Positions 9,391-42,091 of a stretch of DNA of 43,251 bases are shown piece by piece. The notes beneath the pieces are model-generated. The model saw nothing but the letters and a program-made list of their open reading frames with translations. It was not told where the DNA came from and did not search any database. The stretch is from Candidatus Bathyarchaeia archaeon. GTDB lineage: Archaea > Thermoproteota > Bathyarchaeia > Bathyarchaeales > Bathycorpusculaceae. Each line of letters opens with the position of its first letter. Positions within the stretch are counted from its first letter, which is position 1. A program made the position numbers and the translations under genes. The stretch is from assembly GCA_038883795.1 (NCBI GenBank), contig JAVZLK010000010.1:1-43251 (forward strand), in the 5' to 3' direction.

Positions 9391-10784
9391 AGTTCAAACC
9401 CACCGTGTACTGTGACTCTTGGACGTATAAGCAGTACAAATGATCTATCTACATCTGTGCTTGAGACGAATGCGTATCCCACAGGCAAGTCTCTTATAAG
9501 TTCCTCTGTAGATAAAATTTCGCCTTTGTATGTTATTTCAGAAGGGTCTTTGCTTTTCAAATTTTGTGTAACGTATTGCAAATCCGCAAGCGAAACTAGT
9601 TTGTGACTAATTATCGTATCCACTTGAGCCATAACGCGACTATCGATTGCTGTTGGTTGTTGCGTCGTCATTATGACTGAAATACCGTAATTTCGTCCTT
9701 CTCTAACCAGTTTAACCATTATCTCATTAAACATTGTTTTCATCGTAGATGGTAGCAGGTTTTGGGCTTCATCTATTAATAAAGTGACCCTAGGAATGCC
9801 TCTTTCAATAGATTCTTTTAGTTTCTTCTCATTGCCTGCTTGAACAAGAAGAGCCTTCTCATAGTAAGAAGTTTCGGATCTTAACTTCAACAAATTCTTA
9901 ACAAAAACGCTTACAATCGCGGCTCTTATATCGCTCGGGACGCTTCCTAAGAGGAGAATTGTTAGTTTTCCTGAGGTAAACATCTCTTTTAGAGGCGTGC
10001 CCTTAATAGCAAAAAGTGGATATTTAGATAAAACTCGCATGTTATTGATTACTGCACGTCTAGTTTGGATTGCATAGCCCTCAGTTTTGGATGTTATCTC
10101 TTTGTCATGTTGTATACATTGGATAAGATCATCAATAGAATATTGTTCCTTAGGTAACACTTCCTTTTCTTGTACAATGTTGTCGTCTGCGTCGCGTTCG
10201 ACCCAAGTCCAACCAGAACTCTTCACTTTGTCTATAACTTCCAGGATCAATTGACCTCCAAGATCTCTAAACATGTCGTAGCCTAAAAGGTAGCACCAGT
10301 CAGATGCTTCAAGATCCGGTATGCTTAACTTAAATGTTTTAAAGGCAGTTCCAGGGATTTCAAATCCGGCAGGAATCCAAACGTCGACATTCACATCCGC
10401 GGGAGATAATTGCCATTCTTCTAATAGTTGCTTTTGTTTAGCTATGTCTTTTTGAGGCTGATTGCTTGGAATATATTCCATAGTCCAGAATATGTTAATC
10501 GTGTCAAAAAGCAAACTTGCACGATTAATTTTGCCTCGCACTATCTGTTCAGAGTTTGTTGCTAGAGATTCGGCAAAACATCCTAATGTATATGACTTGC
10601 CACTACCTCTCTTTCCAACGATTGAAATTACATGCTCTTTTTCAACGTCAAACCATACATCAGTCTCTGATAATTCTTCAGCGAGTTTGCCCAGAAAGAC
10701 GCTACACTTTGAATCTTCTGCTCCGACTAACAAAGTTCTTTTAGAGAAGCGTGGAATAACGCGAAATCTAGCAGCGCCTGACAT
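9387..10784 (-). CDS. HerA/FtsK-family ATPase (DUF87-like)
   Basis: Walker A GKRGSGKSYT, Walker B LLIDEAQ, VREGRNYG arginine finger, TTQQP glutamine sensor, IRPRVT tail. Confidence 0.88.
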   Translation of the reverse strand: MSGAARFRVIPRFSKRTLLVGAEDSKCSVFLGKLAEELSETDVWFDVEKEHVISIVGKRGSGKSYTLGCFAESLATNSEQIVRGKINRASLLFDTINIFWTMEYIPSNQPQKDIAKQKQLLEEWQLSPADVNVDVWIPAGFEIPGTAFKTFKLSIPDLEASDWCYLLGYDMFRDLGGQLILEVIDKVKSSGWTWVERDADDNIVQEKEVLPKEQYSIDDLIQCIQHDKEITSKTEGYAIQTRRAVINNMRVLSKYPLFAIKGTPLKEMFTSGKLTILLLGSVPSDIRAAIVSVFVKNLLKLRSETSYYEKALLVQAGNEKKLKESIERGIPRVTLLIDEAQNLLPSTMKTMFNEIMVKLVREGRNYGISVIMTTQQPTAIDSRVMAQVDTIISHKLVSLADLQYVTQNLKSKDPSEITYKGEILSTEELIRDLPVGYAFVSSTDVDRSFVLLIRPRVTVHGGFEL

Positions 10785-10793
10785 TTGCTTTAT

Positions 10794-11981
10794 CTACCTT
10801 CGCCTTCTGCGAGGAATTTCTCCAGGTCGTGGGGCCCTCTCTTGTTTCTTAATAGCATTAGCTACTGCCTCTTTGTCAACAAGATCTTTGCCCATCTTTT
10901 TTGATTCTGTTGCGGCATCATTAAGAAGGTCGGATATTGTCCTTGGTGTTTTCCGTCTCGGGTCCTCAGCAACGTGTGTTACAATAAGTTTGATTGCTTC
11001 CTCAGTAAATGGATAGAACTCTTCGTTTACAGTTAACCCTTTTTCTTCTAACCTCCTTATTCTTTTCTCTTTTTCCTTTGGATCCACAACGTAACCCAAA
11101 AGATCTTTTATGAATGGCTCTAATTCCTCATCTTTCAGTTGGCTAATTTGCAGGTAATTTCCTTCCCCAATTCTACCGGAAACTGCCCCGCTGGACAATG
11201 GTGTAACAATTGCTTCATAATCCGCAGCGGTACACGCACAAATGAAACCAAGATGTCTCTGAAGTTTTTCTGAGATCTCTCTAAACGCGGTTATAAATGT
11301 ACCTTGAGCATAAGGATCTGTAACATCTATTAGTTTTTCACATTCATCTATGAGTAGTACCAGTCGCTTTTTCATTATTTCATTGTAGATTTCGCCAAGT
11401 TTTATAAGAAAGCGCGCTGAGTCCCTAGGAGTTATCGCTGATGTAGCACCAAGACCTATTGCTTCGCTCGATGAAACTTGCTCTCCACAAAGCCATCGCC
11501 AAGCACGTATAAGGTCCTCACTACCCTTGGTAGCTACTACAAGTTTCAAACAAACATTCGCTGTATCTGGATTTCCAAAGAACTCCTTAAATTTAGCGTC
11601 CCCTACTTTCAGAAGAAATTTCTGTAATAAATCTTTTATTTGATCACTTCCCATCGTCATTAAAATTTCTTTATAAAGATCCAAGAAAGTAGCGTTTCTT
11701 GCTAAATCAGGACATATAACATATATGGAGTCGTTACCGTATTCCTTTAGAAGTTTCTTGCCGGCATAAAATTGAGTGTGGGTCTTGCCTCCGCCATATA
11801 CCCCCCACAGAACTAATCGCGGGGCACTCTCAATATCTGAAGCCGCTTGTATTCTATCTAACAATAGGCTCTTCTCATCGCTTCTACCTGCATAACATTC
11901 ATAATCGGTTTGCGGATCAAGCATAAAACTAGGTCTTTGTAGCCCAAAGTATTCTCTTATCGTCGCACTTCTTTCAATCAT
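10794..11981 (-). CDS. AAA+ P-loop ATPase, BrxD/Orc-like (paralogue 3)
   Basis: Walker A LWGVYGGGKTH, AWRWLCG, Walker B LLIDECE, FYPFTEEAI, TPRTI. Confidence 0.85.
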   Translation of the reverse strand: MIERSATIREYFGLQRPSFMLDPQTDYECYAGRSDEKSLLLDRIQAASDIESAPRLVLWGVYGGGKTHTQFYAGKKLLKEYGNDSIYVICPDLARNATFLDLYKEILMTMGSDQIKDLLQKFLLKVGDAKFKEFFGNPDTANVCLKLVVATKGSEDLIRAWRWLCGEQVSSSEAIGLGATSAITPRDSARFLIKLGEIYNEIMKKRLVLLIDECEKLIDVTDPYAQGTFITAFREISEKLQRHLGFICACTAADYEAIVTPLSSGAVSGRIGEGNYLQISQLKDEELEPFIKDLLGYVVDPKEKEKRIRRLEEKGLTVNEEFYPFTEEAIKLIVTHVAEDPRRKTPRTISDLLNDAATESKKMGKDLVDKEAVANAIKKQERAPRPGEIPRRRRR

Positions 11982-11992
11982 CTATCTCACTC

Positions 11993-12454
11993 TCATTTCA
12001 GATGATATGCATATAATGTTAACCTTTCTAGTATATTTTTTCCCTCTCCCTTACCCTTTATAAAGATGACTGCATCATCCGTAAAATTAGCATTATAAGT
12101 TAAGTTTGCTGTGCCGAAAAAGCCATATTCAAAGTTAACGCTTTTCACGAGGATTATTTTCGCATGAAGGTTATCATTGTAATATATTCTGGCTCCGGCT
12201 TTCTCAAGCATAGAAACAGCTTTCTTATGCCATGCAGCTGTAGGCGTTCTCGTAATCACTAAAGTATTAATTTTTTCTCGTCTAATTCTTCTACATAGGA
12301 TTTCCAGAAGTGGCTCATCCCTTTGAGGAGTGATCCAAGGTGAAACGATTATGAGTTTTATAATCTCTCTTGTGAGGATTATCTGGTTAAATATTCTTGT
12401 CGGAATTTCGTTAGTCCATAACTCTAATATGCTGGCACTCATGCTTGAATTCAA
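11993..12454 (-). CDS. single-domain phospholipase D-family nuclease (DpdK/Nuc-like)
   Basis: IVSPWI, LHAKIILV and GTANLT are the hallmark HKD-family motifs. Confidence 0.85.
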   Translation of the reverse strand: MNSSMSASILELWTNEIPTRIFNQIILTREIIKLIIVSPWITPQRDEPLLEILCRRIRREKINTLVITRTPTAAWHKKAVSMLEKAGARIYYNDNLHAKIILVKSVNFEYGFFGTANLTYNANFTDDAVIFIKGKGEGKNILERLTLYAYHLK

Positions 12455-12592: not shown

Positions 12593-13843
12593 ATGCATAT
12601 GCCCTTAAACGCTACCATCGAACGAATTAATGTATCCTTCAAAAATAACTGGAACAAGCCTGTTCATCGATGGTACCGTTTCCATGCGGGCTGTTCTTCA
12701 GATTTTCCGGAAAAGATAATCAGTTTACTGAAAATTGAACAGGGAAAAACCATCATGGATCCCTTCACAGGCTCGGGAACCATACTCGTAAGCGCAAAAG
12801 AAAGAGGTGTTAACTCTATTGGTATTGACATAAATCCCTTTTATGTTTTTATGGCGAAAGTGAAAACTTACTGGGAGTTTGATATGAAATATCTTTTTGG
12901 GAATCTGAAAATTTTTACAGAACAAATAAGATTATTAAGTAAAAAAATCAATCCTTGCGGTGAAAAGTCATCACAGACGGTCAGTAATATCCCAAAGTAT
13001 ATTTGGAGGTATTTCAATTCGGATGTTTTGAAAATATTATCTACCCTAAAGGAAGCAGTTTTGGAATTTGAAGATGAAAACATTAAAGATTTTTTGCTTT
13101 TTGCCCTAGCCTCCATTTTAATAGATGTGTCAAAAGTACATTATGTAGGAGAGACTATCGTTTTTAATAAAAATACAAAAACAAATAATGCTCAAGTTTA
13201 CGACATATACATTAATAAAATTTGGGAAATGTATTCGGATCTTGAAGCTAAACAACACTTAAGGAATAAAGGCACGGTAGAAATTAGAAAAGCAGACGCT
13301 AGAAATCTAAAAAATCTGGTTCCAGATGAAAGCATTGATCACGTAATTACTCATCCGCCATATCTAAACAATTATAACTACCTACTACGTGACCGGCTTC
13401 CATTGTTTTTCTTGGAATATTTCAAGACTTTGTCTGACGAGAAAAAAATGCGGGAGTTAATAGTTGGCAGTGTAACCAATAACAAAGCTTTTGCTGAGCC
13501 TGCTTTAAATATTCAGGAGTTTTATGAAATTGTTGAGAGGGTCAAGAACACTGGGGACGTAGAACGTTATTATGCAGTATTGAAGTATTTTCATTTTATG
13601 GATTTATTTTTAACGGATCTTCATAACAAATTAAAAAGAAATGGGTACTGTGCTATGCTTGTTGGGAACTCGTATATTAGAGGGGTTATGATACCGCTTG
13701 ATGTTATTATCGCAAAATTGGCTGAGAAAAGTGGTTTTAAGGTTTTTGCCAATTCAATGGTTAGGGATAGAGGAAATGGCGCTTTCCAACATCTTTATAA
13801 CGGAAGATTATATGAGAACATTTTGATATTAAAACGACCATAG
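12593..13843 (+). CDS. amino-DNA methyltransferase (m4C/m6A, alpha-type motif order)
   Basis: HRWYRFHAG, motif I DPFTGSGT, GIDINP, motif IV ITHPPY, GNS, C-terminal ENILIL. Confidence 0.88.
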   Translation: MHMPLNATIERINVSFKNNWNKPVHRWYRFHAGCSSDFPEKIISLLKIEQGKTIMDPFTGSGTILVSAKERGVNSIGIDINPFYVFMAKVKTYWEFDMKYLFGNLKIFTEQIRLLSKKINPCGEKSSQTVSNIPKYIWRYFNSDVLKILSTLKEAVLEFEDENIKDFLLFALASILIDVSKVHYVGETIVFNKNTKTNNAQVYDIYINKIWEMYSDLEAKQHLRNKGTVEIRKADARNLKNLVPDESIDHVITHPPYLNNYNYLLRDRLPLFFLEYFKTLSDEKKMRELIVGSVTNNKAFAEPALNIQEFYEIVERVKNTGDVERYYAVLKYFHFMDLFLTDLHNKLKRNGYCAMLVGNSYIRGVMIPLDVIIAKLAEKSGFKVFANSMVRDRGNGAFQHLYNGRLYENILILKRP

Positions 13844-13859
13844 AATAGGTTGAAATATT

Positions 13860-14924
13860 ATGCGGATTACTGTTCAGCCAGTTGAAATACCCGAATTAAT
13901 TGAGGCAATGAAGATAATTATCAAATTCGTAGACCAAAATAGAAAACCTCTATCTGTAGAAGACCTTCAAAACGAGTTTTTAAAGGAAGGTTATAAAAAG
14001 GGAAAGCCAAAAGTAAGGAACATAATAGGGACTCTTGTCGAATGGAGACTTATCAATCGCATAGAACGTTCAAAGTATGAGCCCTCCTTTACATCCAAAA
14101 AGCTCTTCTCATTGCCAAACAAGAGACTAGAAATGGAAATTAAGAAGATTATTCTTAAAAACGAACCTAAATTTCTTGAAATGTTATATCTTCTAGAAGG
14201 TTCACGCTTAACGGTGGAAGAATTGTCTAACATGTTGGGAACAACTATTGTAACTACAAATGTTTTTCTTAGATGGGGATTATATTTCAAAGAAATTGAA
14301 AAAAAGGAAAACTTCTTCACTAAACGACTTACGAAAGATGACATTACATTACCTCATAAGCAACTTGCTCGTTGTGTGGCATCTGAATTAGCAAGAGTAG
14401 GATTCAACATTTCTTTTGAGCAAGGGAAACCACCGACAGATTTAATCGCTGAGAGCCAAGATAAGCAACGTAAGATCTATGTAGAATGTAAATCGTCAAT
14501 AAGTGAAGTTACCAAAGGAATTGGTCAGCTAGTTGTATCAGAACGCAAAAAGACCGATGAACTCTGGCTAGTTTTACCTACTTCTGTAATATCTGAGATA
14601 ACGTATAGCCGACTTTTTAAAATTCTAGAAGGCTTGAATAACATTAAAATGGATTTAGTATTGTACAATCTTGAGAAATTTCTAAACGGAGAAGCGGCGT
14701 TTCGGGAAAGAATAAGATTATTTGGAAGACGTTGGAAAGCGGACAAAGATTTTCTCCACAAACTAATTGAGGCTGATTTTAAGCATGATTTTGACGAAAA
14801 GATCGTAGCCGAATTTCTACAGATCAAGCAAAGAAGAGCGAAGAAAACATTAAATCGATTATTTTATCGAGGTTTATTGTCGAAGAGAAACGGAAAGTAT
14901 TCTTTTAGATGTAAAACTAAGTAA
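13860..14924 (+). CDS. putative restriction endonuclease (wHTH domains + PD-(D/E)xK)
   Basis: PTDLIA...YVECK...GIGQL nuclease motifs flanked by wHTH segments; directly downstream of the MTase. Confidence 0.72.
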   Translation: MRITVQPVEIPELIEAMKIIIKFVDQNRKPLSVEDLQNEFLKEGYKKGKPKVRNIIGTLVEWRLINRIERSKYEPSFTSKKLFSLPNKRLEMEIKKIILKNEPKFLEMLYLLEGSRLTVEELSNMLGTTIVTTNVFLRWGLYFKEIEKKENFFTKRLTKDDITLPHKQLARCVASELARVGFNISFEQGKPPTDLIAESQDKQRKIYVECKSSISEVTKGIGQLVVSERKKTDELWLVLPTSVISEITYSRLFKILEGLNNIKMDLVLYNLEKFLNGEAAFRERIRLFGRRWKADKDFLHKLIEADFKHDFDEKIVAEFLQIKQRRAKKTLNRLFYRGLLSKRNGKYSFRCKTK

Positions 14925-16599
14925 CTAATGTTGTTTGTTTGTATTTTTTATGCTGTACGTTTTTATTTGAAAACAGCTCATAGTAGGATTTAATTTCATT
15001 TAATATAGCCTCTCTAAAATTTTTCATTTGTCTATTATATTCTATTACATCTAGTTTTCCTCTACTCAATTCTACCTTAGGGAAAATCTCGATAGGAACA
15101 TCTAAAGATAATGAAGCCTTTTCAATTGCTTCACGATAAGGACCTAACCCTATGAAGAAAATCTTGTCATAGAAGCGTAGTTTATTCTTTAGGTCTCTTA
15201 TGACATTCAAAAGTTTTTCTGATGTTAAACGTTGTTCATAATAGGGTATTATTGTATCCCAACTTATTAGCATATATTTACCCGAAAGAATGCCAATTTC
15301 TATTGGAAGATCGTGTACATTTTCCCAGAATGTTTTGAAAAGGTTAGATTTTGCATATCGCATGTATGCAGGTAAGAGTCTTTCGCTGGGGTCTTTTTCA
15401 CCTGTGCACCAAGTTAATGCCAAAATCCTAGGATATTTCTTTTTTAGAATTCTGTGGAAATGGTATACGTTGTGAAAGCCTCTGCGCATGTTTCGTTCGC
15501 ATCCTCTAAAAATACACACATGTAATCCAATTTCTGTGCAGATTGGACAATCACACTTCTCCCAGGGTTTATCATTCAACGTCCTTAATACATCCTTCTC
15601 TCTAAAAGAGAAGCCTTGGGGGTCATAGTCTTTTAATATGGTGGCAAATTCCTCTGCTGTAACTCTTCCCTGAGTAAATTCTCTAAGCTTTTGAAAAACA
15701 ATTTTTTCCTGCAGTTTTTCTTTTTCATTTTTAGCTTCACGAATTCTGATTGCCGTATAAAAATGTTCATTCATCATGTAGTTCTTGGTACCAGAGGTCC
15801 AAGCCATTCTGAGTGGTGAAGCAGAATCAAATGATGTTACTCCACATTGTAACATTGTAGTGAAGAGGTCTTTTCTTGCCACTCCGAATAAATGAAGCCC
15901 TATTCTTGGCCAGTAGTGGATTTTCTCTTTTCTTTTCTTTAAATGTTCCTTTATTTCCTTATGAACTCTGAATAATACTTTTTGTATTGTAATTGTAGGT
16001 TTTTTAGCTAGCCCACCTAACCCAACATAATTAAATCCATGTTCTAATAATTCACGAATACCTCTAGCATAAGATTCCTCGTCCCATCCCTGTGTAATCC
16101 CAATAAGGCGTATGCCTTCGTATCTAGTTTTTTGTGCTTCATCATACATTTTCTTGGCATTTTCGATTGTTAGATTCCATCTCTCCTCCTTTTCTGCATC
16201 TGTCAAGGGCCGCCTTTCTTTATCCGATACTTTTACAGTCTTTACTATCAAATGGTCAACCGTAACTCCAATGTCAAATCCTAGGTCTTTGTAAAAAGAT
16301 AGGGTTTGGAGGGCCTCATAGCGCGGCTTCTGGTCGTCTACATAGCTAAACGCCCCACAATCGCCCATTATTTGCCCATAAAACCCCAATGCGGCATGAA
16401 TTCCTTCCTTTTCTGCTTTCTGTCTTATATGATTTGTCCGCTCGATGTTTATCCTAGAAACTAGAACGCCGTCGATTGGAGGTTTACTAAAGCACTCCCA
16501 TATTCTTTTCTGTGTTCCGCTATACTTGTCAGTCCATGGATTGAATGTTTCATAGATGTCGTCACCTGGCCAAAATGGGATAAAATACTGCATAGTCAT
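14917..16599 (-). CDS. dpdA: DNA 7-deazaguanine transglycosylase DpdA fused to a C-terminal DUF6884/YaaA-like domain
   Basis: DpdA signatures: PIDGVLVSR, GDCGAFSY, VDHLI, TQGWD, GLGGL, LHLFG, SFDSASPLR, PWEKCDCPIC, IFRGCERNMRRGFHN. C-terminal domain has WCTGEK...PAYMRY...ILSGKYMLI...IIPYYEQRL. Confidence 0.88.
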   Translation of the reverse strand: MTMQYFIPFWPGDDIYETFNPWTDKYSGTQKRIWECFSKPPIDGVLVSRINIERTNHIRQKAEKEGIHAALGFYGQIMGDCGAFSYVDDQKPRYEALQTLSFYKDLGFDIGVTVDHLIVKTVKVSDKERRPLTDAEKEERWNLTIENAKKMYDEAQKTRYEGIRLIGITQGWDEESYARGIRELLEHGFNYVGLGGLAKKPTITIQKVLFRVHKEIKEHLKKRKEKIHYWPRIGLHLFGVARKDLFTTMLQCGVTSFDSASPLRMAWTSGTKNYMMNEHFYTAIRIREAKNEKEKLQEKIVFQKLREFTQGRVTAEEFATILKDYDPQGFSFREKDVLRTLNDKPWEKCDCPICTEIGLHVCIFRGCERNMRRGFHNVYHFHRILKKKYPRILALTWCTGEKDPSERLLPAYMRYAKSNLFKTFWENVHDLPIEIGILSGKYMLISWDTIIPYYEQRLTSEKLLNVIRDLKNKLRFYDKIFFIGLGPYREAIEKASLSLDVPIEIFPKVELSRGKLDVIEYNRQMKNFREAILNEIKSYYELFSNKNVQHKKYKQTTLVT

Positions 16600-16624: not shown

Positions 16625-17887
16625 CTAGAATACATCTGTTAGTGATTTCTTTAAAACATCTTCGTTAATTAATGAGTTGCGCATCATCGAACATGTATCG
16701 ATGGCAATGTTACATAGGCTTAGCGTTCTCCGTATATTTCCTTGGGATATTTGCAGAATCATCTTGAGTGCGCCATCAGTAAATGGGTAAAGGCAAGGAT
16801 CCTCTATGCATATTTTCTCTTTTTCTAATTTTCGCATAAGCTTTTCTTCACTAATGCTCCTGGAGTTTCGCAGGTATTCTTTTACGAATTGGTTTATGTT
16901 TTGCTCATTTAGAGGCCTTAATGTGATTTCCTTGAATATCCTCTCCGAAAAAGCATGGTACTCTCTAATTATGTTTGCCCATGTTTCTGGTGTGCATGCT
17001 ATTATAAGGGATAAACCCTTAGGATTGAGATCTATGAGGTGTCGGATACTATTTAGTAGAGCTTGCCTTTTTGGTGGAATTAGCATATCAATAGACTCAA
17101 ATTCGTCGAGAAGTAAACATACTAAATCGTAACCTAGTATTTTTAATATCTTTCGCAAACACATGAAAAGCTGTAGAGCTCTATCGTCTGTGTCAATTGG
17201 TGTGACTATACCAAGGTCACGCCTTTGTTCCGAATAGGTAGGGTCTCCACTAAGCCATCTCCAAGCTAAAAGTCCCGTTTCTTCCATTGTTAATTGCAGA
17301 AACGCTGTAAGAAAGTCCTGCCATTTTACTATGGGCAAGAATTCATCTTTGGATTCTTTGATTAATGTTGATAAAATTACAGTGCCATCGTCTACTAATC
17401 TCTTTATGCTTAACAAGTCTTTATTGAGACTCTCAGCTACTTTTTTTGGCTCTTCAGTGAATTGCATTTTTTTCCTTTCAATAAGTTTTGAAGCTGTGTA
17501 TCCTAAAACCTGCCATGAAAGATTATGAAAGAAGTCATAACCTACATCATACATAAAACCTCGGTAGATATCGCGGAATGATGTACCCGAACAGCTGACG
17601 TATCCGACTAATATTTTCTCTGACTCCTTTTCAAGCAATTTTCCTATCTCTTTTTTTATATACTTTAGCAAGTGTGTCTTACCGTTTCCATAACCAGCAA
17701 CTATCGACAAATGCGTTGAAAAGCCGCGAAGGGATGAAACCAAAGAGCGATAAACGATGTCTACTTCCTCTTCTCGATTAATACAAAATGGGGGATCGTC
17801 CTCTGGAACACCAACGCTCGGGAAGGGATTTTTCGTCAAGAAATAAAACCGGTGATCTTTTTCACCCTCTAAAGTTAGTTTACTCAT
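16625..17887 (-). CDS. AAA+ P-loop ATPase, BrxD/Orc-like (paralogue 4)
   Basis: NPFP, Walker A AGYGNGKTH, AWRWLSG, Walker B LLDEFE, LYPFT, GNIRRTL. Confidence 0.86.
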   Translation of the reverse strand: MSKLTLEGEKDHRFYFLTKNPFPSVGVPEDDPPFCINREEEVDIVYRSLVSSLRGFSTHLSIVAGYGNGKTHLLKYIKKEIGKLLEKESEKILVGYVSCSGTSFRDIYRGFMYDVGYDFFHNLSWQVLGYTASKLIERKKMQFTEEPKKVAESLNKDLLSIKRLVDDGTVILSTLIKESKDEFLPIVKWQDFLTAFLQLTMEETGLLAWRWLSGDPTYSEQRRDLGIVTPIDTDDRALQLFMCLRKILKILGYDLVCLLLDEFESIDMLIPPKRQALLNSIRHLIDLNPKGLSLIIACTPETWANIIREYHAFSERIFKEITLRPLNEQNINQFVKEYLRNSRSISEEKLMRKLEKEKICIEDPCLYPFTDGALKMILQISQGNIRRTLSLCNIAIDTCSMMRNSLINEDVLKKSLTDVF

Positions 17888-17891
17888 TGTA

Positions 17892-18752
17892 TTATCCCTT
17901 CAATGGCTCAAAAATAGCGACATAGCGATACTCTTTACCGTCTATTTCGATGCCTTTACTCTCCTTCAAGCATACAAACTGAGGCGATAGAATGGAATCT
18001 TTCAGTCCCTTTTTCACTTTCTTCAGAGAGAAAGGGTTTTTCTTGGTAACGCTAGTTATTGGTGCTCCGCACAACTCCATTTTTCCATATGACTTTTTAA
18101 AAGTGCTGACGAATAGAAAATCAAAAGTTTCCCTTTTTATTTTCAGCTTCTCACATACGTATTCCCTCAATTTTGCGATTTCTACATATTTTTGTTTAAG
18201 ACCAGGTCTTGGTTTGATATTTAGTTCCTCGTAAGTTGCTTGAAGAAACGAAATAAAATCTGTAAAGCCATTAACATTGTTCGCCAAATAATATTTGTTG
18301 GTGTAAAGGTTACGTTGAACCACACCTAATCGTTCCGCCCAATCGCATAGAACGTCAACAGCAGTCACATTGAAATTCAGTAGAGGATCATTAGCAAGAA
18401 TTTTTAATAAATCACTTTTTGTGAAACTACTGAAAAGCACATTTCTTCCAAAAGCTTCCATAAAGGTTTTGTAGAATGAATAATTGCTAAACAGTAGAGT
18501 ATGCATTTTTTCCCAATTTTCATGCTCAAAAGCCTCTATAAAATCGTATGCGTTTTTGTTTGGAATGAATTTGCCATTATTATATTCTAAGAATTTTATT
18601 CGTTCAGCTTCTAATAGAATTTCTTGCGCTCTTTTTTGTGTAGTTTTTAACTTAGCTGCCAACTTAGAAGAGTCAAGGTATCCTTCTTTAATGCTTAAGT
18701 CAATAGTTTCTATAATCCTTCTTAAAGTTACAGGCCTTATGGAAATTTTCAT
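17892..18752 (-). CDS. multi winged-helix protein, ATPase partner (paralogue of 2046-2930)
   Basis: HTH LAAKLKTTQKRAQEIL; DWAERLG, LREYVCEKLKIKRETFD, LCGAPIT. Confidence 0.72.
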   Translation of the reverse strand: MKISIRPVTLRRIIETIDLSIKEGYLDSSKLAAKLKTTQKRAQEILLEAERIKFLEYNNGKFIPNKNAYDFIEAFEHENWEKMHTLLFSNYSFYKTFMEAFGRNVLFSSFTKSDLLKILANDPLLNFNVTAVDVLCDWAERLGVVQRNLYTNKYYLANNVNGFTDFISFLQATYEELNIKPRPGLKQKYVEIAKLREYVCEKLKIKRETFDFLFVSTFKKSYGKMELCGAPITSVTKKNPFSLKKVKKGLKDSILSPQFVCLKESKGIEIDGKEYRYVAIFEPLKG

Positions 18753-18763
18753 GTTCTTTCCTC

Positions 18764-19834
18764 CTAAAAGATTCGTTTAACTTTACGCTTTGCATATTCA
18801 AAAGCCTTTAAGGCTATCGAGTTTCGTGTGTAACGTTCTTTAATGTAGCTTTCAAGCCGTCGTTCAGCAATAGCAAATTGAATCTGCTTTAACTCGTGCC
18901 ATAAAACCCAAAGGTTATGAAGAGAGATTAAAGACCTGTTCTTTCTAATTTCCTCTATAGTTTTCGAACTACAAATTGTACACGCGCAGGGGAGTGCATC
19001 GAGCTTAGCTATGTATTTCATTGACACATAAGTATAGTTTGGGACAAAGTATTGTCGTTTTCCGCCACAAATTATGAAAGAAGTAGAGTCAAAAGAATCT
19101 GCTCCTAAATATATTAGTAGAGGTGTTGATAGAATTCCCCCCAGTCCATAAACATGTAAGGGTTTTTCAGGCACTGCTTGCCGAGCAGAAAAAATTAAGT
19201 CAACAAGAAGTCGAAGATTGCTGCGGATAGGTATCATGCTTCCCACAGCAAAGCCATCAAAAATTGAGTATTTTGCTAAATGTTTCAAAACATTACTAAT
19301 TATCATCGGGTCATTTCCATGAACAGAAGCGTATAACAGCATTTCTTTCCGTTTTTTAAGTCTCGCAGCTTCCTTTGCGCTTTCAATGCTTCTAGCAATG
19401 CTATTCACGATGTTTCCTGCAGTATTCTTAATTACAAATGGGAAATCAAAAGTCGAGGCGATGTCAGCTCCACAAATTTCTTGTATTCGCAATATTTCCT
19501 CGGTTTTCACTGACACATGCTTTCTAAGAGTAAGAAACCCCCCACTATCAACGAAAGCTACACCAGGAAAACCAAGAAAATTATGTATACCGCCAGCAAA
19601 ACTGATTTTTTCCTTTATTTTCCTATAATTATGAAAAATATAGTATGCATTAAACATCGCAGTTTTTATGTTTGGAAAGAGTTCCCAATATTTAGGCGTA
19701 TTCCACCCTCCTTGCGCTCCAAGATTATGTACTGGAAAAATTATTGGTGTCTTTAAACATCCGTGAGGTGTTTTTAGTTCTCCTATTCTAGCTAACTGAT
19801 CTTGTTGGGCTATTCGAAACAATTTATTTTTCAC
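18764..19834 (-). CDS. tRNA-guanine transglycosylase family protein (ArcTGT-like catalytic domain only, no PUA)
   Basis: ARIGELKTPHG..KTP, DSGGF, FDFP, VHG, FAVGSMIP, LHVYG, GADSFDS, zinc site PCACTIC...LHN; 356 aa. Confidence 0.9.
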   Translation of the reverse strand: MKNKLFRIAQQDQLARIGELKTPHGCLKTPIIFPVHNLGAQGGWNTPKYWELFPNIKTAMFNAYYIFHNYRKIKEKISFAGGIHNFLGFPGVAFVDSGGFLTLRKHVSVKTEEILRIQEICGADIASTFDFPFVIKNTAGNIVNSIARSIESAKEAARLKKRKEMLLYASVHGNDPMIISNVLKHLAKYSIFDGFAVGSMIPIRSNLRLLVDLIFSARQAVPEKPLHVYGLGGILSTPLLIYLGADSFDSTSFIICGGKRQYFVPNYTYVSMKYIAKLDALPCACTICSSKTIEEIRKNRSLISLHNLWVLWHELKQIQFAIAERRLESYIKERYTRNSIALKAFEYAKRKVKRIF

Positions 19835-20206: not shown

Positions 20207-20866
20207 TTAAAAATATTTAGGTATTGTTTTTATAAGAACAAGAATTAATAAAGAGCCCCCAAGAGTTCCTATGATTCTTTCGTATATCATTAGAGGCAAA
20301 ATTCCTGGAAAAACTTGCCATGGAAGGCCAAGCAGATGTACCGCGAATATCATCATCACTCCTTGCTCCGTCATTGTTGATATATATGTGTACATTGGTA
20401 TCTTCATGTGTAATGGTGTCATTTTCTTAACCGCGCTAACTACTGCAAGAATTACAGCAATTGAATGTGGCACTATAAAGTATGGAAATAGATAATTTTT
20501 AATCAGGTAAGCTGATATGGCGAATACAAGAAATAGCGAGGTTGCTGATGCGCCTAATTTTGACTTATGATAGGTTAGGCTTCCGAAGGTTGCCCCAACC
20601 ATCGGTAGTAGTATTGTGTAAGGTCCAAACATGGCTTGCATAGGTGCAACATAAAAGGCTATTACTCCTCCAAACAAAGAGGCAAATAAAGCTTCAACTG
20701 GCGATAAAAGGATTGCCATAACGGGCGTTATGATTAAGTTCAGCGCAAGAAAACTTGGTGCCCCAATAAACATGCTTATGGGTATAAGGCTCGTTACAAC
20801 ATAAAGAGCCGCAAACACTCCGATTTTCGCTGTTCTCACAGCTTTAGCGTTAAGAATGTCGTTCAA
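20207..20866 (-). CDS. ECF-transporter S-component-like membrane protein
   Basis: About 6-7 hydrophobic helices, N-terminal VFAALYVV (AxxxA-type helix), GP/SP..A..A...GG pattern typical of S components. Confidence 0.65.
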   Translation of the reverse strand: MNDILNAKAVRTAKIGVFAALYVVTSLIPISMFIGAPSFLALNLIITPVMAILLSPVEALFASLFGGVIAFYVAPMQAMFGPYTILLPMVGATFGSLTYHKSKLGASATSLFLVFAISAYLIKNYLFPYFIVPHSIAVILAVVSAVKKMTPLHMKIPMYTYISTMTEQGVMMIFAVHLLGLPWQVFPGILPLMIYERIIGTLGGSLLILVLIKTIPKYF

Positions 20867-21204
20867 CTTTTCTTCACCCTGCCCCCTAACAAGTCCTCAT
20901 AAACTCTTCTCATGTGAAAAACAGCTACAGCCGTATCATCGTCTAAACCGCATCGGCAGGTTCCGCATTTAGGACATTTAAGCCAACCACATTTAGCGCA
21001 AAGCTCTGCATCAGCATAAAACTTCTCACCGCACTTGAAACAGTAAATCCAAGGCTTAACAAAGAATTCAAGAAAGTTCTCGATAACCCCAGAAAGGGGT
21101 ATATGTTTAGCATCGCATGATTTCTTAGCGTCATCTAAAATGTTCTTATCTAATGTTATTGTCTGTCTAACTTTAGAAGGGGTCCGGATTTTATACTTAT
21201 TCAT
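20863..21204 (-). CDS. ribbon-helix-helix regulator with C-terminal Cys-rich zinc ribbons
   Basis: RQTITLDKNILDDAKK...LSGVIENFL (RHH) followed by CFKC, CAKC, CPKC, CRC. Confidence 0.75.
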   Translation of the reverse strand: MNKYKIRTPSKVRQTITLDKNILDDAKKSCDAKHIPLSGVIENFLEFFVKPWIYCFKCGEKFYADAELCAKCGWLKCPKCGTCRCGLDDDTAVAVFHMRRVYEDLLGGRVKKS

Positions 21205-24780: not shown

Positions 24781-24863
24781 CGATGCCACTATGAGCAATA
24801 TTGTTGAAAAAGGTTTAAATATTTCACTGTTCATTAATATTGTTCATAAATAAACAACATTAA

Positions 24864-25676
24864 TTGAGGCTTACGTTGAACATGACTTCCTCTCTAAACG
24901 AAATAAAATCAATTTCCTTAGCATTAACCAATAGCAATTTTGAGGAAAACAAAATATTACTTGACAACATTTGTTCGGAAATAGCATCACGCTTCAATTT
25001 GTACCAATCAAACGGAAAACCACACAAAAGCACAATCATCGAGACTCTCGCAAAATCCACGTGCCTCGCATGTGTAGCTAAATGGTTCTCCGACCACGTA
25101 AACAATAAAGTGGACACCATATACAAAGAGTGCCACAAATTAGCAGTTAATGTTCTAGTAGAAGAACTTTACCATTTCCTTAATCAATTAGGCTATAAAG
25201 TTGTGATTTCAACAGAGGAAGAGTTAGAGTATGGCAAGGCCGATATCTTAATCGAAGTAACCAATTATGGTTTAAACCTAAAAAGTAAGGCTAAAGAACT
25301 TCTAATTGAAGTTAAAACTGGAGATTCTTTATCGCTTATCCAGATTTTCAGATATCTCTGGGATTCTAGAAGCAACGCAATAGTAGTCTGGAGAGTGAGA
25401 AAACGTCAAGTATTAACATTCGACCCTCAAAAAATTGAGCCTCTTCTTACAGAATCCATGCGAATGATTTGCTTGAGAGGCATCAGGCTATTATCATCAC
25501 CACAGATACACTCCTGCCAACATCTCGCAAGGGCAACTCATCAACCAGCTGCTACAGAACTCGAACTAATGTTTCAAGACTTCGCAAAGGCAATAATTGA
25601 AACTTTACCATCAGTTTTGCAAAGGGTTCTTGAACAATTAGCTATAAACAAAACCGGGGTAGTTGGACAAACGTGA
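24864..25676 (+). CDS. PD-(D/E)xK-fold protein
   Basis: YGKADILI...LIEVKTG...QIFRY nuclease-like motifs; 4-nt overlap with the recombinase gene. Confidence 0.6.
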   Translation: MRLTLNMTSSLNEIKSISLALTNSNFEENKILLDNICSEIASRFNLYQSNGKPHKSTIIETLAKSTCLACVAKWFSDHVNNKVDTIYKECHKLAVNVLVEELYHFLNQLGYKVVISTEEELEYGKADILIEVTNYGLNLKSKAKELLIEVKTGDSLSLIQIFRYLWDSRSNAIVVWRVRKRQVLTFDPQKIEPLLTESMRMICLRGIRLLSSPQIHSCQHLARATHQPAATELELMFQDFAKAIIETLPSVLQRVLEQLAINKTGVVGQT

Positions 25677-26647
25677 AAGATGAAAAAAGCAACAGGAATC
25701 AACCTTTATTTGCGGCAATATACGCACGTACATCCTCTCCAAATCAAAAAAATAACTACAGCGTAAAAGAGCAGGTTAGTAGTTGCTTGGAGTTTTGCAC
25801 AAAGAGAGGATGGATTGTGAGGTATATTTTCGTTGATGAAGGTGAGAGTGGAAAAACGGTAGAAAGACCGAAATTTCAGCAGATGCTTGAAAAGGCTAAG
25901 GAAGGAGCGTTTAAGGTAATTGTTTTTTGGAAACTTGATAGATTTTGCCGGTCACTGGTAGACCTGGTAAACATAGAAAAAATGTTGCGCACTTGGAATA
26001 TAGGTCTATGCAGCGTAACAGAATTCATCGACACGACTACCTCTGTTGGGCGGTTTAACTTCAGAAACTTAGCATCAGTTGCTGAACTTGAACGGGAACT
26101 TATTGGCGAAAGGGCAAAATTGGGATTGTACGCTCTTGTTAAAGAGCACAAGTGGCCTAATCCGCATCCCCCTATAGGATATGATAAGAGTGAGAGTGGA
26201 CATCTAGTAGTTAATGTAACAGAGGCTAAACTTGTTAATAGGATATTTTTTATGTACAAACGGCTAAAATCAATGCCGCAAGTGGCTTTCGAACTCAATA
26301 AGGAAGGCATTAGAACAAAGAAAGGAAAAGAGTGGAACGCCCGGGCTGTCAAAGATGTAATCACAAATGAGTTGTATATAGGGAAGTTCAATGTATCTGG
26401 AGTTAAGGACTATGTGCCGGAATACCATATCGTTGAGGAAAAGGTCTTTAGAAGCGTCAATAAGATTAGGCTCAGATATCGCAATGGTCATGCTAAGAGA
26501 CCGCCAATGCCTAAGGATAGAAGAAAATCCAAAATCGCTAAAATTTTTGATCGATATATGAAATTTATTGAGAAACATGAGGCTTATTCTAGTAAAAGTA
26601 TACGCGAAAGGGAACAAACCAATGGTTTTCAAAACATCCACTTCTAA
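25673..26647 (+). CDS. serine recombinase (resolvase + recombinase domain)
   Basis: YARTSS catalytic serine, GESG, RPKFQQM, KLDRFCR, ERELIGER, PPIGY, NELYIG. Confidence 0.93.
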   Translation: MKDEKSNRNQPLFAAIYARTSSPNQKNNYSVKEQVSSCLEFCTKRGWIVRYIFVDEGESGKTVERPKFQQMLEKAKEGAFKVIVFWKLDRFCRSLVDLVNIEKMLRTWNIGLCSVTEFIDTTTSVGRFNFRNLASVAELERELIGERAKLGLYALVKEHKWPNPHPPIGYDKSESGHLVVNVTEAKLVNRIFFMYKRLKSMPQVAFELNKEGIRTKKGKEWNARAVKDVITNELYIGKFNVSGVKDYVPEYHIVEEKVFRSVNKIRLRYRNGHAKRPPMPKDRRKSKIAKIFDRYMKFIEKHEAYSSKSIREREQTNGFQNIHF

Positions 26648-27476
26648 GACGGTTACTCAATGTTTTGAATGCGGAAGTACAGAATTGATTGAATATGGAG
26701 AGATGACAGTATGTCAAAACTGCGGTTTAGTTTTAACTTCACAAATCACTCAACAAGTCATAGAAATGCCTCCAAAATTTGCATTTTCAAAAAAGGGTGT
26801 TCGCTCAAGTTTATTTCAAACTTATGATGGCAAGCTTATAGAAGATAGGGCAACTTTCAAGAAATGGCAAAAGCTATTTCAAGTGTCTGATGCTACGGAG
26901 AAGAATTTGGCATCAGCCCTTTTTGAGATAACAAAAATTGGCAACAAAATTGATATTTCAAATGAAATTCTTATGGCAGCTGCAAGCATATACAAAAAAG
27001 CTGTTGAGAAGAGGCTTACTAAACGAAGATCGATACGAGCACTTAGTGCCGCTATTGTTTATATGGCATGCAGACAATGTGGTATTCCAAGAACCTTGAA
27101 GGAAGTGGCTTATGCCGCTGGATTGCATTCGATGGAAATTATGCGTAGCTACAGGGTTCTTTTGAGGAGACTAAAATTTCCAACTCATTCTTTTGATGTC
27201 AGTCAATTTGTACATAGACTTGCAGATCAGCTTTCGATGCACGAAACGACCAAAGAGATTGTAGATAAGATTGTAGAGAGCGCAGAAAGTTCCCGCTTTT
27301 CTCAAGGGAAAAACCCAATTGGATTAGTTGCGGCAGCATGCTACATAGCGTCTATACTTGCAGGAGAAGCGAAGACTCAGAGAGAGATAGCCGAAATAGC
27401 CCGTATAACCGAGGCGACGATACGAAACCAATGTAAAGAGCTAACTAAAAACCTTATTTTTACGATTTCTTTGTAA
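26622..27476 (+). CDS. tfb: transcription initiation factor IIB (TFB) homologue
   Basis: Zn ribbon CFECGS...CQNCGLV, EKNL..A, YMACRQCGIPRTLKEVA, GKNPIGLVAAACY, TQREIA...TEATIRN; start ATG 26622. Confidence 0.92.
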   Translation: MVFKTSTSKTVTQCFECGSTELIEYGEMTVCQNCGLVLTSQITQQVIEMPPKFAFSKKGVRSSLFQTYDGKLIEDRATFKKWQKLFQVSDATEKNLASALFEITKIGNKIDISNEILMAAASIYKKAVEKRLTKRRSIRALSAAIVYMACRQCGIPRTLKEVAYAAGLHSMEIMRSYRVLLRRLKFPTHSFDVSQFVHRLADQLSMHETTKEIVDKIVESAESSRFSQGKNPIGLVAAACYIASILAGEAKTQREIAEIARITEATIRNQCKELTKNLIFTISL

Positions 27477-27508
27477 ACAAAAAATGTACAGCAGGAAAGA
27501 TATCTAAG

Positions 27509-29065
27509 TCACGAGTATGAATCATTGCCTTCTTGAATCCCTTCTAGAGTGTGTTCAAGGTCCTCGTCTTGCCACTTCTTTTTTTTCTTTCTGTAGCGCT
27601 TATATATCCTCATTATGGTCTCAATAGCTTTGTCTCTTTTAAGCACCCATTCTCTGATTCTTTCAATCGCTTTTTTCTTGATGGCTCTCAGTTGTCTTCC
27701 GCAGTTTTTGCAGATGTAGACTTGTCCGTTTCTCACCATTTTGTTTTGACAATCTGGACAAAGGAGTGCTACATTAGGCAGGTAATCCAAAATATCTAGC
27801 CCACAGTTCGCTAGGAGTTCCTCTAATTCGTCTTCTCTACGTTTGTATCTCTTGCTTAAAATTGAAATTATTTTTGCTGCCTTTTGAAAGCTTTCCTCAT
27901 CGATATAAGCCAGGTTGGGATCGTTAACGGCAACTTCTCCAAACTTCCTATTCACAACCTCCCCAAAGTACCTTGGCTTGCCTATATACACAGGATTTCC
28001 TAAAATTTGTCTGATTTGTTGGCGAGTTAATGGTTTCTTCAAAACAGAACTGTGAAGCCTATTTACAATATCTGCCACAACTCCATAGTTTTTATAGCGC
28101 AAGAAGAGTGTAAACACGTCCTTAATCACACAGTCCCAACCGAAGTTTTTCTCAATCCATTGCTTTTTCTTCTTATATCCCAAGGGAACTGGCAGATTCC
28201 ATATACGATTTAGGAAAGATTGTACTTTGGAACGCAGCGCATAATAACCTCTTAACTCATTTTGCTCTTCAGCCCCAAATGCTTTGACGGTCGTCGCAAC
28301 CAAGTCTGCAAGCTTTTCTAAGTCAAGCTCTCCGGTTGGAGTAACAATCAGCACACCATAGCTTCTAAGTTGCAGAAGAAAACCCAGAAGCTTGAGGGAT
28401 CTCCTTCCAACTCTATCAATTTCAGAAACTACCAACTTATCTATCTTTCCAGCTGCAGCCAAGGCAAGGATTACTCCAAGTTTTCGGCTGCTGAAATCCC
28501 TTCCACTTTTCCCAGCATCGATTAGGAAAATGGCACGGGAGGCTCCTATCTTTTTGGCAACGGTTCTGAGCTCCATTTCTTGAGCCTTCAAGCTTTTCCC
28601 TTCTTTCGCTTGCTTTGGGGTGCTTACTCTTATGTAAACTGCAACGGTGACTCCTTCTTTTCCATACCGCTCTATCTTGTCGATAGATGGAAAAACAGCT
28701 TGTAAAAGACTGTCATCCTTTCCCTCTTTTCTAGCAGCTCTCCTTATCCTAGTGCCCTTTGGTTTATTAATTGTCTTTTTGAAATTTTTAGGCTCAGTTT
28801 TTCTGTCATGAGAGTTTTGCTTGATAAAGCCTACTACGAAAGCGCCAAAGAAATGTAAGGGAAAAATCACTTGGTTCTGCAAAAATATCAGAAAGCATGC
28901 GAGAAAAATATATGATGCAACATGTCCCTTAAAAGTAAGATGTGACCACTCCAATGTTGACTTAAAAGATTTTCTGAAAATTTTTATGGTTTTTATTATG
29001 CGGGCAACGAAGACAGAAAGAATCATATTTTTCGTAAAAAGTTTGCGCAAAACTAAAAAGTACAT
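27509..29065 (-). CDS. serine recombinase with C-terminal zinc ribbon (true start probably downstream of 29065)
   Basis: VYIRVST..Q, GKSG, EIDRVGR, VPLGY, NPVYIG, CPDC...CKNC. The first ~130 aa are unassigned. Confidence 0.85.
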   Translation of the reverse strand: MYFLVLRKLFTKNMILSVFVARIIKTIKIFRKSFKSTLEWSHLTFKGHVASYIFLACFLIFLQNQVIFPLHFFGAFVVGFIKQNSHDRKTEPKNFKKTINKPKGTRIRRAARKEGKDDSLLQAVFPSIDKIERYGKEGVTVAVYIRVSTPKQAKEGKSLKAQEMELRTVAKKIGASRAIFLIDAGKSGRDFSSRKLGVILALAAAGKIDKLVVSEIDRVGRRSLKLLGFLLQLRSYGVLIVTPTGELDLEKLADLVATTVKAFGAEEQNELRGYYALRSKVQSFLNRIWNLPVPLGYKKKKQWIEKNFGWDCVIKDVFTLFLRYKNYGVVADIVNRLHSSVLKKPLTRQQIRQILGNPVYIGKPRYFGEVVNRKFGEVAVNDPNLAYIDEESFQKAAKIISILSKRYKRREDELEELLANCGLDILDYLPNVALLCPDCQNKMVRNGQVYICKNCGRQLRAIKKKAIERIREWVLKRDKAIETIMRIYKRYRKKKKKWQDEDLEHTLEGIQEGNDSYS

Positions 29066-33513: not shown

Positions 33514-33773
33514 TGAGCAAGGAGCAGTTTGAAGAACTGTCTCAGAAACTTGATACAATAATTAAATTACTCGCTGGCAACTTGTTGAAAGATGTTAAAA
33601 CTAAGACGCAAAAAGTTGAAATCTTATATAATTTAGGGATTTCCACAAAGGAAATAGCACAAATCATAGACGCAAGCGAAGCGAGCGTTGAAACCTTGAA
33701 AACTCGTTTAAGAAAGAGAACAGGAGAGGTTGCACTAAAAAGTGGAAAGAAATCTGACAAGAATCAACCCTAA
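33510..33773 (+). CDS. small HTH protein (tandem paralogue 3)
   Basis: LGISTKEIAQIIDASEASV; N-terminus MMSKEQFEEL..KLDTIIK is close to paralogue 2. Confidence 0.8.
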   Translation: MMSKEQFEELSQKLDTIIKLLAGNLLKDVKTKTQKVEILYNLGISTKEIAQIIDASEASVETLKTRLRKRTGEVALKSGKKSDKNQP

Positions 33774-41867: not shown

Positions 41868-41925
41868 AGACCATCAATAAATATTAGGTGTGATCGTCTC
41901 ATATAAAGGTTCCGAACCCAGAAGG

Positions 41926-42004
41926 TGGCGGGCCCGGTGGGATTTGAACCCACGTTCTCCGGCTCCGAAGGCCGACGCCTTGATCCATACTGGGCTACGG
42001 GCCC
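41926..42004 (-). tRNA. tRNA-Arg (anticodon TCG), integration target
   Basis: Reverse complement GGGCCCG...TCGGC-CTTCGGA-GCCGG...GTGGG-TTCAAAT-CCCAC-CGGGCCC-G-CCA. Confidence 0.97.
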
Positions 42005-42091
42005 TCAGAGAAGACAATAGCCCAATAACAATTAAAAGGGCTTCGGAAAACCCTTAAAAATGGTTGTTGATTAATATTTTGTTGTTGTTTG

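Follow-up and report, generated by a model that had tools for sequence, protein, structure and literature searches.

The stretch of DNA analysed here, hereafter the window, comprises 43,251 nucleotides (nt) of contig JAVZLK010000010.1 from the assembly GCA_038883795.1 of a Candidatus Bathyarchaeia archaeon. The protein under study belongs to the TGT superfamily, has 356 amino acids (aa), is encoded on the minus strand at positions 18764–19834, and is referred to as TGTs. To judge by its sequence, TGTs is apparently a second, active TgtA-like transglycosylase, located in one gene array with the DNA-modifying enzyme DpdA. It has two fixed partners, a tandem winged-helix protein (wHTH) and an AAA+ ATPase, which were overlooked in a preliminary description of the locus and which are the key to reading TGTs. 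The trio of TGTs, wHTH and ATPase could be an ATP-dependent base-exchange machine that writes a 7-deazaguanine on DNA beside a DpdA fused to a DUF6884 domain, a reading that we hold with a confidence evenly poised between acceptance and doubt.

TGTs as a short TgtA-like transglycosylase

The TGTs gene begins with a GTG start codon, and its product is devoid of C-terminal or PUA domains. The protein was matched by the Pfam TGT profile (PF01702) with 141.4 bits (cut-off 26.3; E 5e-41) over profile positions 2–354 of 357, and by the NCBIfam tgt_general model (TIGR00449) with 137.1 bits against a cut-off of 47.6, which assigns it to the superfamily. Among the more specific models, that of TgtA (TIGR00432) scored best, with 190 bits, under its equivalog cut-off of 350. 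This match spanned profile positions 1–342 of 441, the C-terminal part being absent from TGTs. Lower scores were obtained with the models of bacterial Tgt (84 bits), ArcS (NF040592; 61.2 bits, cut-off 440) and DpdA (NF041059; 26 bits, cut-off 200), and PADLOC returned a weak ‘TGT’ match of 16 bits. TGTs is thus a member of the superfamily that falls outside TgtA, DpdA, ArcS and Cap10 alike; ArcS-like and Cap10-like identities were rejected on the ArcS score and on the invariance of the zinc site, respectively.

The closest solved structure is that of the ArcTGT from P. horikoshii (PDB 1iq8; E 1e-35), which was aligned over chain residues 9–338 of 582. In this alignment, VDSGGF of TGTs pairs with VDSGSF of 1iq8, FDFP with LDIP, FDSTS with FDSAS, CACTIC with CSCPVC, LHNLW with LHNLW, and AVGSMIP with PIGGVVP. 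The catalytic aspartates of TGTs are Asp96, Asp130 and Asp249, and its zinc site (CxCxxC...H) is formed by Cys283, Cys285, Cys288 and His306. In an alignment of 19 TGTs members with identities down to 39%, residues D96, S97, G98, G99, D130, P132, D249, S250, C283, C285, C288 and H306 were invariant. An N-terminal motif comprising N45, T46, P47 and Y49 was likewise invariant and is specific to the TGTs family, with a gap at that place in ArcTGT. The preliminary description had read the catalytic aspartates and the zinc site as intact, the pocket motif AVGSMIP as ArcTGT-like, and the C-terminal tRNA-binding domains as absent. All three points are borne out: the first by the 1iq8 alignment together with the invariance across the 19 members, the second by the pairing with PIGGVVP, and the third by matches that end at position 342 of 441 in the TgtA profile and at residue 338 of 582 in 1iq8.

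The zinc site bears on the possibility of protein modification, by which TGTs would act like Cap10 and bind or process a 7-deazaguanine conjugated to the wHTH or the ATPase. A TGT-family enzyme does so in type IV CBASS, the cyclic oligonucleotide-based antiphage signalling system (bioRxiv 2025.04.06.647259; this and all other publications cited here are represented by the parts that were accessible), and both the fixed protein neighbour of TGTs and the weak PADLOC match would be in keeping with it. However, the zinc site that is invariant in TGTs is missing from Cap10, whose nucleic-acid surface is remodelled, and Pfam scans of the window detected neither a CD-NTase nor a Cap9-type gene. We therefore regard protein modification as very improbable.

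Separation from the housekeeping TgtA

The genome examined (2.18 Mb in 81 contigs, 87% complete) contains four TGT-family genes, namely a TgtA of 542 aa on contig C3, the TGTs and the DpdA of the window, and a second TGTs on contig C27. The protein on C3 is the genome’s own TgtA, which matches TIGR00432 with 567.4 bits and covers the whole profile. The identity of TGTs to the housekeeping TgtAs of related genomes is 33–36%.

Phylogenetic trees were built from the listed matches of at least 300 aa, the genome’s own proteins, context-verified TGTs and DpdA outgroups, all cut to their first 400 residues. In a 151-row tree (LG+G4, quick search), 104 TgtA rows, including the genome’s TgtA and four short fragments, formed one clade with a Shimodaira–Hasegawa-like approximate likelihood-ratio test (SH-aLRT) value of 99, and TGTs was found outside it among short archaeal TGT-like lineages. 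In a 61-row tree (posterior mean site frequency (PMSF) mixture model, quick search), a branch with an SH-aLRT value of 100 set off a group of 26 TgtA rows from which TGTs was excluded, and the 13 context-verified TGTs constituted one side of a branch with a support of 81. Since a separate full-length TgtA is present in the genome and TGTs lies outside the TgtA clade, TGTs is not the housekeeping enzyme. The preliminary description had proposed a TGT-family phylogeny and had envisaged that TGTs might group with a split housekeeping TgtA; the phylogeny now places it outside the TgtA clade in both trees. That TGTs is nonetheless a split TgtA, modifying only G15 of tRNA, is hardly credible. TgtA is indeed its best NCBIfam match, but the clade from which it is excluded includes short TgtA fragments, no separate C-terminal or PUA gene is found beside it, and TGTs is rare among relatives.

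A single carrier (genome G229, 368 bits) was detected among 300 other sampled genomes of the same class, the remaining matches in that sample being TgtAs of 524–583 aa with at most 157 bits, and 400 other genomes sampled from the phylum yielded none. A search of genome contigs with the TGTs protein yielded a single close contig, from Bathyarchaeia (L007), and a search of 1.84 billion representatives yielded 1307 matches at E ≤ 0.001, with 53 at E ≤ 1e-30. A viral origin of the family was considered and dropped, as the best relatives on viral contigs share just 21–31% identity. Other short archaeal TGT-like clades (~345–395 aa; P0134, P0145, P0147, P0164 and P0189), from Methanofastidiosa, Thermoprotei and unnamed sources, also branch outside the TgtA clade.

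Fixed partners and recurrent layouts

Within the window, TGTs is followed on the minus strand by the co-directional genes of the wHTH (286 aa; 17892–18752), the ATPase, which is BrxD/ORC-Cdc6-like (420 aa; 16625–17887), and DpdA with its fused C-terminal DUF6884 domain (560 aa; 14917–16599), the intergenic gaps being 11, 4 and 25 nt in that order. The TGTs gene is preceded by a gap of 372 nt, upstream of which further co-directional genes encode a membrane protein of 219 aa, a protein of 113 aa, a PD-(D/E)XK nuclease and a UvrD helicase. The preliminary description had placed TGTs at the head of the dpdA operon, a placement that stands insofar as it is based on the 372-nt gap, rather than on a mapped promoter, and that is qualified by the co-directional genes upstream. 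Its further statement that two transglycosylases in one operon are not canonical holds, the layout being unlike that of the bacterial Dpd systems in the accessible parts of PMC10164549 and PMC5699537.

The wHTH was matched by no family of Pfam, NCBIfam or PADLOC. Its AlphaFold2 model (predicted local distance difference test score 86, predicted template modelling score 0.83) shows three helical units that resemble winged helices, together with a C-terminal domain rich in beta structure. A Foldseek search with this model found no PDB fold match at E ≤ 0.001, and the weak matches were solely to tandem winged-helix proteins, the C-terminal domains of SelB among them. The ATPase gave weak matches to BrxC/BrxD and ORC-type models, with 43.9 bits for Pfam BrxC_BrxD, 35.6 bits for NCBIfam BrxD, far under the cut-off, and 35 bits for PADLOC BrxD.

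Related loci were collected through a profile-guided scan of metagenome contigs, from which the best 80 loci among 386 relatives were kept. Together with the genome’s C27 locus (L005), that of G229 (L038) and the window, they make up a context set of 83 loci, from which L007 was left out. These loci were analysed by tblastn, clustering and home-built hidden Markov models (HMMs), and the 21 that extend for 5 kb or more upstream and 7 kb or more downstream are referred to as well-flanked. Among the 66 loci with at least 900 bp downstream, clustering placed the wHTH family directly downstream of TGTs in 62, and tblastn located it at the expected place in the remaining four. The ATPase is adjacent to TGTs–wHTH in all 21 well-flanked loci. 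A DpdA domain and a DUF6884 domain occur in 18 of these 21, at least two genes for the synthesis of 7-cyano-7-deazaguanine (preQ0) in six, and the 219-aa membrane protein in seven.

Four layouts recur. Layout A is the gene order of the window. In layout B, found in the genome’s second copy and in G229, DpdA–DUF6884 is divergent from ATPase–TGTs–wHTH. The second copy, on contig C27 (L005:3787–9899), encodes a DpdA–DUF6884 of 573 aa (340 bits) divergent from an ATPase of 388 aa, followed by a TGTs of 356 aa that is 50% identical to that of the window and a wHTH of 285 aa that is 39% identical. An AGOG-like N-glycosylase/DNA lyase of 322 aa adjoins the C27 DpdA and has a homologue in L053 (48% identity by tblastn). 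In layout C, which characterises a clade at 40% identity found in samples from brine and the sea, DpdA and DUF6884, fused or split, precede TGTs–wHTH–ATPase, the DpdA scoring 261–266 bits with NF041059. Two loci of this clade (L104:6952–9941 and L105:6698–9610) contain a DpdA of 970 aa with insertions, which matches the profile in three stretches and ends in DUF6884; in others, it is split into a DpdA of 760 aa and a separate DUF6884 protein of 235 aa.

In layout D, represented by three of the 21 well-flanked loci, the available flanks of the trio contain no DpdA or DUF6884, even when all six frames are searched with HMMs. Next to the trio come genes for a HEAT-repeat protein of 554 aa, a PD-(D/E)XK–helicase protein of 1062 aa, and a protein of 686 aa whose match to the zinc-binding domain of MrfA is weak and below the cut-off. 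An example is L110:13089–19995, with its kin L085, L094–L096, L098 and L103, and a protein of 89 aa is encoded divergently upstream.

For the 26 loci in which all four proteins are full-length, the pairwise-identity matrices of TGTs correlated with those of the ATPase and the wHTH at 0.973 and 0.948, respectively, and each trio member correlated with DpdA at 0.88–0.89, values that are descriptive and do not allow for the relatedness of the loci. In L087 and L100, DpdA shares 52% identity with its C27 counterpart, whereas TGTs shares only 38–41%. Because of these higher correlations and of the DpdA identities in L087 and L100, the trio appears, in descriptive terms, as the tighter unit and DpdA as an often exchanged companion. 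The wHTH is the fastest-evolving of the four proteins, with 27–40% identity where TGTs keeps 39–50%.

A paralogous cassette on the minus strand at 829–4068 encodes a PIN-like protein of 386 aa, a winged-helix protein of 294 aa and an AAA+ ATPase of 406 aa. The latter two are related to the wHTH (28% identity, E 2e-12) and the ATPase (30%, E 2e-56) of the TGTs trio, and the first gene is unrelated to TGTs. The PIN-like assignment follows atlas scores of 0.96 to clusters that have PIN_4 in 25–49% of their members and a match to PDB 3ix7 at E 0.03. The occurrence of the wHTH–ATPase pair with a PIN-like first gene fits a putative platform that carries an enzymatic head. It also bears on a possible effector function, in which wHTH–ATPase would sense or load on foreign nucleic acid and TGTs would restrict it by excising guanine, or the 7-deazaguanine of a virus, the outcome being a covalent adduct, an abasic site or the loss of a protective viral mark. 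In favour of such an effector are the PIN-like nuclease on the same platform, the pairing of the trio with the PD-(D/E)XK–helicase and the weakly MrfA-like protein in loci without DpdA, the AGOG-like glycosylase beside the C27 copy, and the defence of bacteria by glycosylases that excise 7-deazaguanine (bioRxiv 2025.10.29.685425). Conversely, TGTs retains the ArcTGT pocket with every residue used for inserting a base, its close linkage to genes of preQ0 supply suits a writer better, and the PIN cassette is found in none of the 83 other loci within their flanks, which led to its rejection as a regular restriction partner of TGTs. Altogether, we find an effector function quite unlikely.

A mobile RNA transglycosylase is a further alternative, by which TGTs would modify tRNA at a position other than G15, or another RNA, with the wHTH standing in for the C-terminal RNA-binding domains that have been lost. 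By family and by structure alike, the nearest match is a tRNA enzyme, bacterial TGT enzymes of this size act on tRNA according to the names of the PDB matches, and tandem winged helices also bind RNA, with the SelB domains among the weak fold matches of the wHTH. We nevertheless strongly doubt an RNA substrate in view of the accessory, sporadic distribution (one of 300 and none of 400 genomes), the duplicate module in one genome, and the constant linkage to DpdA, the AAA+ ATPase, nucleases and a methyltransferase of DNA in the setting of defence islands.

DpdA and the supply of the modified base

The 560-aa neighbour of the trio is, by its sequence, a true DpdA. It scored 275.9 bits with NF041059, above the cut-off of 200, and matched the DNA-guanine transglycosylase of PDB 7ui4 at E 7.5e-43, with the GDCGAF, DH, FDSAS and CDCPIC motifs aligned. 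The DUF6884 domain scored 20–23 bits in the window DpdA, below the cut-off, and 68.6–72 bits in the C27 paralogue. It is a separable unit, since it is fused to DpdA in some loci and a separate protein in others. According to the Pfam curators, DUF6884 is distantly related to YaaA (PMC11701544), and DpdC, which converts dPreQ0 (2′-deoxy-7-cyano-7-deazaguanosine) to dADG (2′-deoxy-7-amido-7-deazaguanosine), is a YaaA/DUF328 protein (PMC12839542, PMC5699537). No DUF328 match was obtained in the context of the window DpdA. The DpdB model NF041060 was unmatched in the 87%-complete genome, and PADLOC found no DpdB among the ten open reading frames around TGTs.

These data bear on whether the trio might merely serve DpdA, for instance with TGTs as a partner of the QTRT2 kind and the wHTH and ATPase as a DpdB replacement that would open the DNA and present the base. 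QTRT2 has lost its catalytic residues, and a non-catalytic partner would not need the invariant catalytic aspartates and zinc residues of TGTs. Moreover, DpdA is absent from three of the 21 well-flanked loci and has a partly separate history, as illustrated by L087 and L100. Such a helper is unlikely for these reasons, even though DpdA and DUF6884 accompany the trio in 18 of the 21 loci, the genome has no DpdB match, and the eukaryotic TGT is a heterodimer of paralogues (PMC10164549; bioRxiv 2025.04.06.647259). An obligatory heterodimer with DpdA, one form of the heterodimeric partnership that the preliminary description had listed as an alternative, is weakened by the loci in which the trio occurs without a DpdA domain.

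The putative source of the base varies among loci. In layout B, the wHTH is followed either by QueE–QueC–QueD–FolE2 or by the 219-aa membrane protein, and a DUF6364-like small protein comes next each time. In G229, QueC scored 203 bits with PF06508 and 177.6 bits with TIGR00364 (cut-off 150.3), QueD 108 bits (cut-off 89), FolE2 203 bits with PF02649, and QueE 196 bits with TIGR04349, below that model’s cut-off of 300. In the window, the transporter-like protein (219 aa; 20207–20866, minus strand) and the DUF6364-like small protein (113 aa; 20863–21204, minus strand), whose genes overlap by 4 nt, take the place of QueE–QueC–QueD–FolE2 at 20207–21204 (compare L038:6999–9889). The 219-aa protein resembles the S component of energy-coupling factor (ECF) transporters. 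It matched Pfam ECF-ribofla_trS with 17 bits, below the cut-off, and its nearest atlas clusters are annotated as ‘ECF transporter S component’, with scores of 0.96 and 0.93. Exactly two copies, 75% identical, exist in the genome, each beside a TGTs module. The 113-aa protein scored 26.4 bits with Pfam DUF6364, just under the cut-off of 27.3, and its cluster is found in 23 of the 83 loci. No credible QueC, QueD or QueE was detected in the 87%-complete genome, which gave only PP-loop or radical-SAM matches of at most 30 bits. Because the membrane protein is swapped with the biosynthetic pathway in the same position, it is a candidate importer of preQ0 or a precursor. Scavenging of the deazaguanine base from tRNA, which the preliminary description had also offered, was rejected as the main role of TGTs and is weakened by the many loci with a linked de novo preQ0 pathway or transporter.

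Proposed role of the trio

The favoured reading as a DNA writer would proceed as follows. TGTs would remove guanine through an Asp249-type nucleophile and insert preQ0 or a close 7-deazaguanine, an exchange that we infer because the TGT chemistry is intact and the pocket is ArcTGT-like. The rapidly evolving triple winged-helix protein would bind DNA and set the site of TGTs action, and the BrxD/ORC-like AAA+ ATPase may provide an ATP-dependent step, by analogy with that provided for DpdA by the unrelated DpdB in Salmonella. Beside the trio, the canonical DpdA fused to the DpdC-like DUF6884 would make dADG. The base would be supplied by the linked preQ0 pathway or, in the window, by the ECF-type importer, and the two writers of one island could serve an additional site, strand or mark.

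A bolder version is possible, though doubtful. Here, the trio would represent a self-sufficient class of machines, derived from TgtA and apart from all DpdA subfamilies, for 7-deazaguanine transglycosylation of DNA, and would mark DNA independently of DpdA. The island would then have two independent writers, acting on two motifs, strands or bases, and the wHTH–ATPase pair would be a reusable targeting platform that also serves the PIN nuclease.

Several points weigh against the trio as a DNA writer. The sequence of TGTs is nearest to the tRNA enzyme TgtA (190 bits) and not to DpdA (26 bits), and bacterial TGT enzymes of similarly short size act on tRNA. The need for a second intact transglycosylase is unexplained where DpdA is already intact. 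The support values of the trees come from quick searches only, and the DpdB model NF041060 was silent in the control genomes as well. Finally, the 21 well-flanked loci are not independent, as they include the near-identical pairs L094/L096, L095/L098 and L105/L107, and DpdA could sit beyond the 10-kb flanks of the three loci that lack it.

In the literature accessible, 7-deazaguanine modification of DNA is credited to enzymes of the DpdA family alone, with DpdB as the sole known helper. The present analysis adds a second lineage of transglycosylases, TgtA-like and catalytically intact by sequence, which is found repeatedly, in the company of a predicted DNA-binding protein and an AAA+ ATPase of its own, in Bathyarchaeia, halophiles and other archaea. 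If the proposed role is true, a tRNA enzyme has been recruited to DNA-linked defence islands more than once. The trio would then be a candidate for how archaea without DpdB drive base exchange in duplex DNA, and would be simple enough a system in which to study the need of an island for two writers. The ECF S component, which replaces the preQ0 pathway in some loci, is a likely base importer.

Other genes of the island

A co-directional set at 8278–12454 comprises a PLD-like protein of 153 aa, a BrxC/D-like ATPase of 395 aa, a HerA-like protein of 465 aa and a protein of 370 aa to which no family was assigned, and this set may be a restriction arm. Homologues of HerA were found near the TGTs module in 13 loci and those of PLD in 7–10. 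A type II-like DNA methyltransferase (12593–13843; PADLOC MTase_II, 144 bits) is encoded convergently with DpdA, and its cluster recurs in eight loci with the window-type layout; a methyl mark may thus also be carried by the island. Further defence genes encode a CAP12/Pycsar-type TIR-domain protein (114 bits) and a protein with an AbiJ N-terminal domain, at 33742–34623 and 30686–31504, respectively.

The fraction of guanine plus cytosine in the window is ~0.37, and the window is archaeal, based on the TFIIB gene at 26568–27476. In the regions 24860–29065 and 40587–42166, this extra TFIIB gene is flanked by two serine recombinases, and a tyrosine-integrase-like gene adjoins tRNA-Arg and tRNA-Ile. 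A tRNA-Ala is found at 57–132. In appearance, the window is a patchwork of integrated elements.

Comparison with known systems

The closest system is the bacterial Dpd of Salmonella enterica serovar Montevideo, comprising DpdA, DpdB and DpdC (PMC10164549; PDB 7ui4). According to that work, DpdA swaps guanine in DNA for preQ0 through the TGT double-displacement mechanism, with Asp95, Asp130 and Asp256. In vitro, it depends on the hydrolysis of ATP by DpdB, a ParB-like protein, and DpdC then makes dADG independently. Like bacterial Dpd, the window has a true DpdA, an ATPase, a YaaA-related domain and a defence-island setting, and the TGTs-related loci with linked preQ0 genes recall the bacterial loci, which are part of a mobile defence island and sometimes near genes for preQ0 synthesis. 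Unlike bacterial Dpd, no ParB-like DpdB was found here, the ATPase being of the BrxD/ORC-like AAA+ kind, the DpdC-like domain is DUF6884 instead of DUF328 and is fused to DpdA, and an extra TgtA-like transglycosylase is present with its own winged-helix partner.

With TgtA/ArcTGT, TGTs shares the TIM-barrel catalytic domain, the three aspartates, the zinc site and a pocket in which G-S-M-I-P stands in for G-G-V-V-P. It differs in the absence of the C-terminal domains (C1–C3/PUA), in forming a separate clade, and in its accessory, sporadic occurrence in a defence island. The described DpdA subfamilies are bDpdA and DpdA1–4, of which DpdA4 is specific to archaeal viruses (PMC10516641). TGTs resembles the viral DpdA1–DpdA4 as a stand-alone enzyme of the TGT superfamily, those enzymes being proposed or shown to insert 7-deazaguanines in DNA (PMC10516641). 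Unlike them, it reached just 26 bits on the DpdA model, had no match to Pfam DUF6610 (DpdA4), is cellular, and has a winged-helix partner and an ATPase tied to it.

Cap10 of type IV CBASS, whose partners are a CD-NTase and the QueC-like Cap9, is also a short TGT-family protein connected with 7-deazaguanine chemistry in an anti-virus system (bioRxiv 2025.04.06.647259). In contrast to TGTs, it binds a modified protein N-terminus and has no zinc site; as to its partners, a CD-NTase was unseen in the Pfam scans of the window. BREX-related capture (BRC; BREX, bacteriophage exclusion) with a TGT/GNAT component is comparable to the present system and has no DpdB or DpdC in the accessible description, where an NTPase is proposed to replace DpdB (PMC12839542). 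However, PglZ, DUF6079, DUF4007, a STAND NTPase and HerA are the defining components of BRC, and the Pfam scans of the window gave no match to PglZ, DUF6079 or DUF4007. Nor is BRC described with a DpdA beside a second TGT in the accessible part of that paper.

Full-text searches of the literature found no account of a second, TgtA-like transglycosylase accompanied by a wHTH and an ATPase next to DpdA, although archaeal paralogues of this sort may be listed in the supplementary tables to the papers on Dpd, phage DpdA and BREX. The trio locus is a real and conserved variant of the Dpd kind, apparently not described before.

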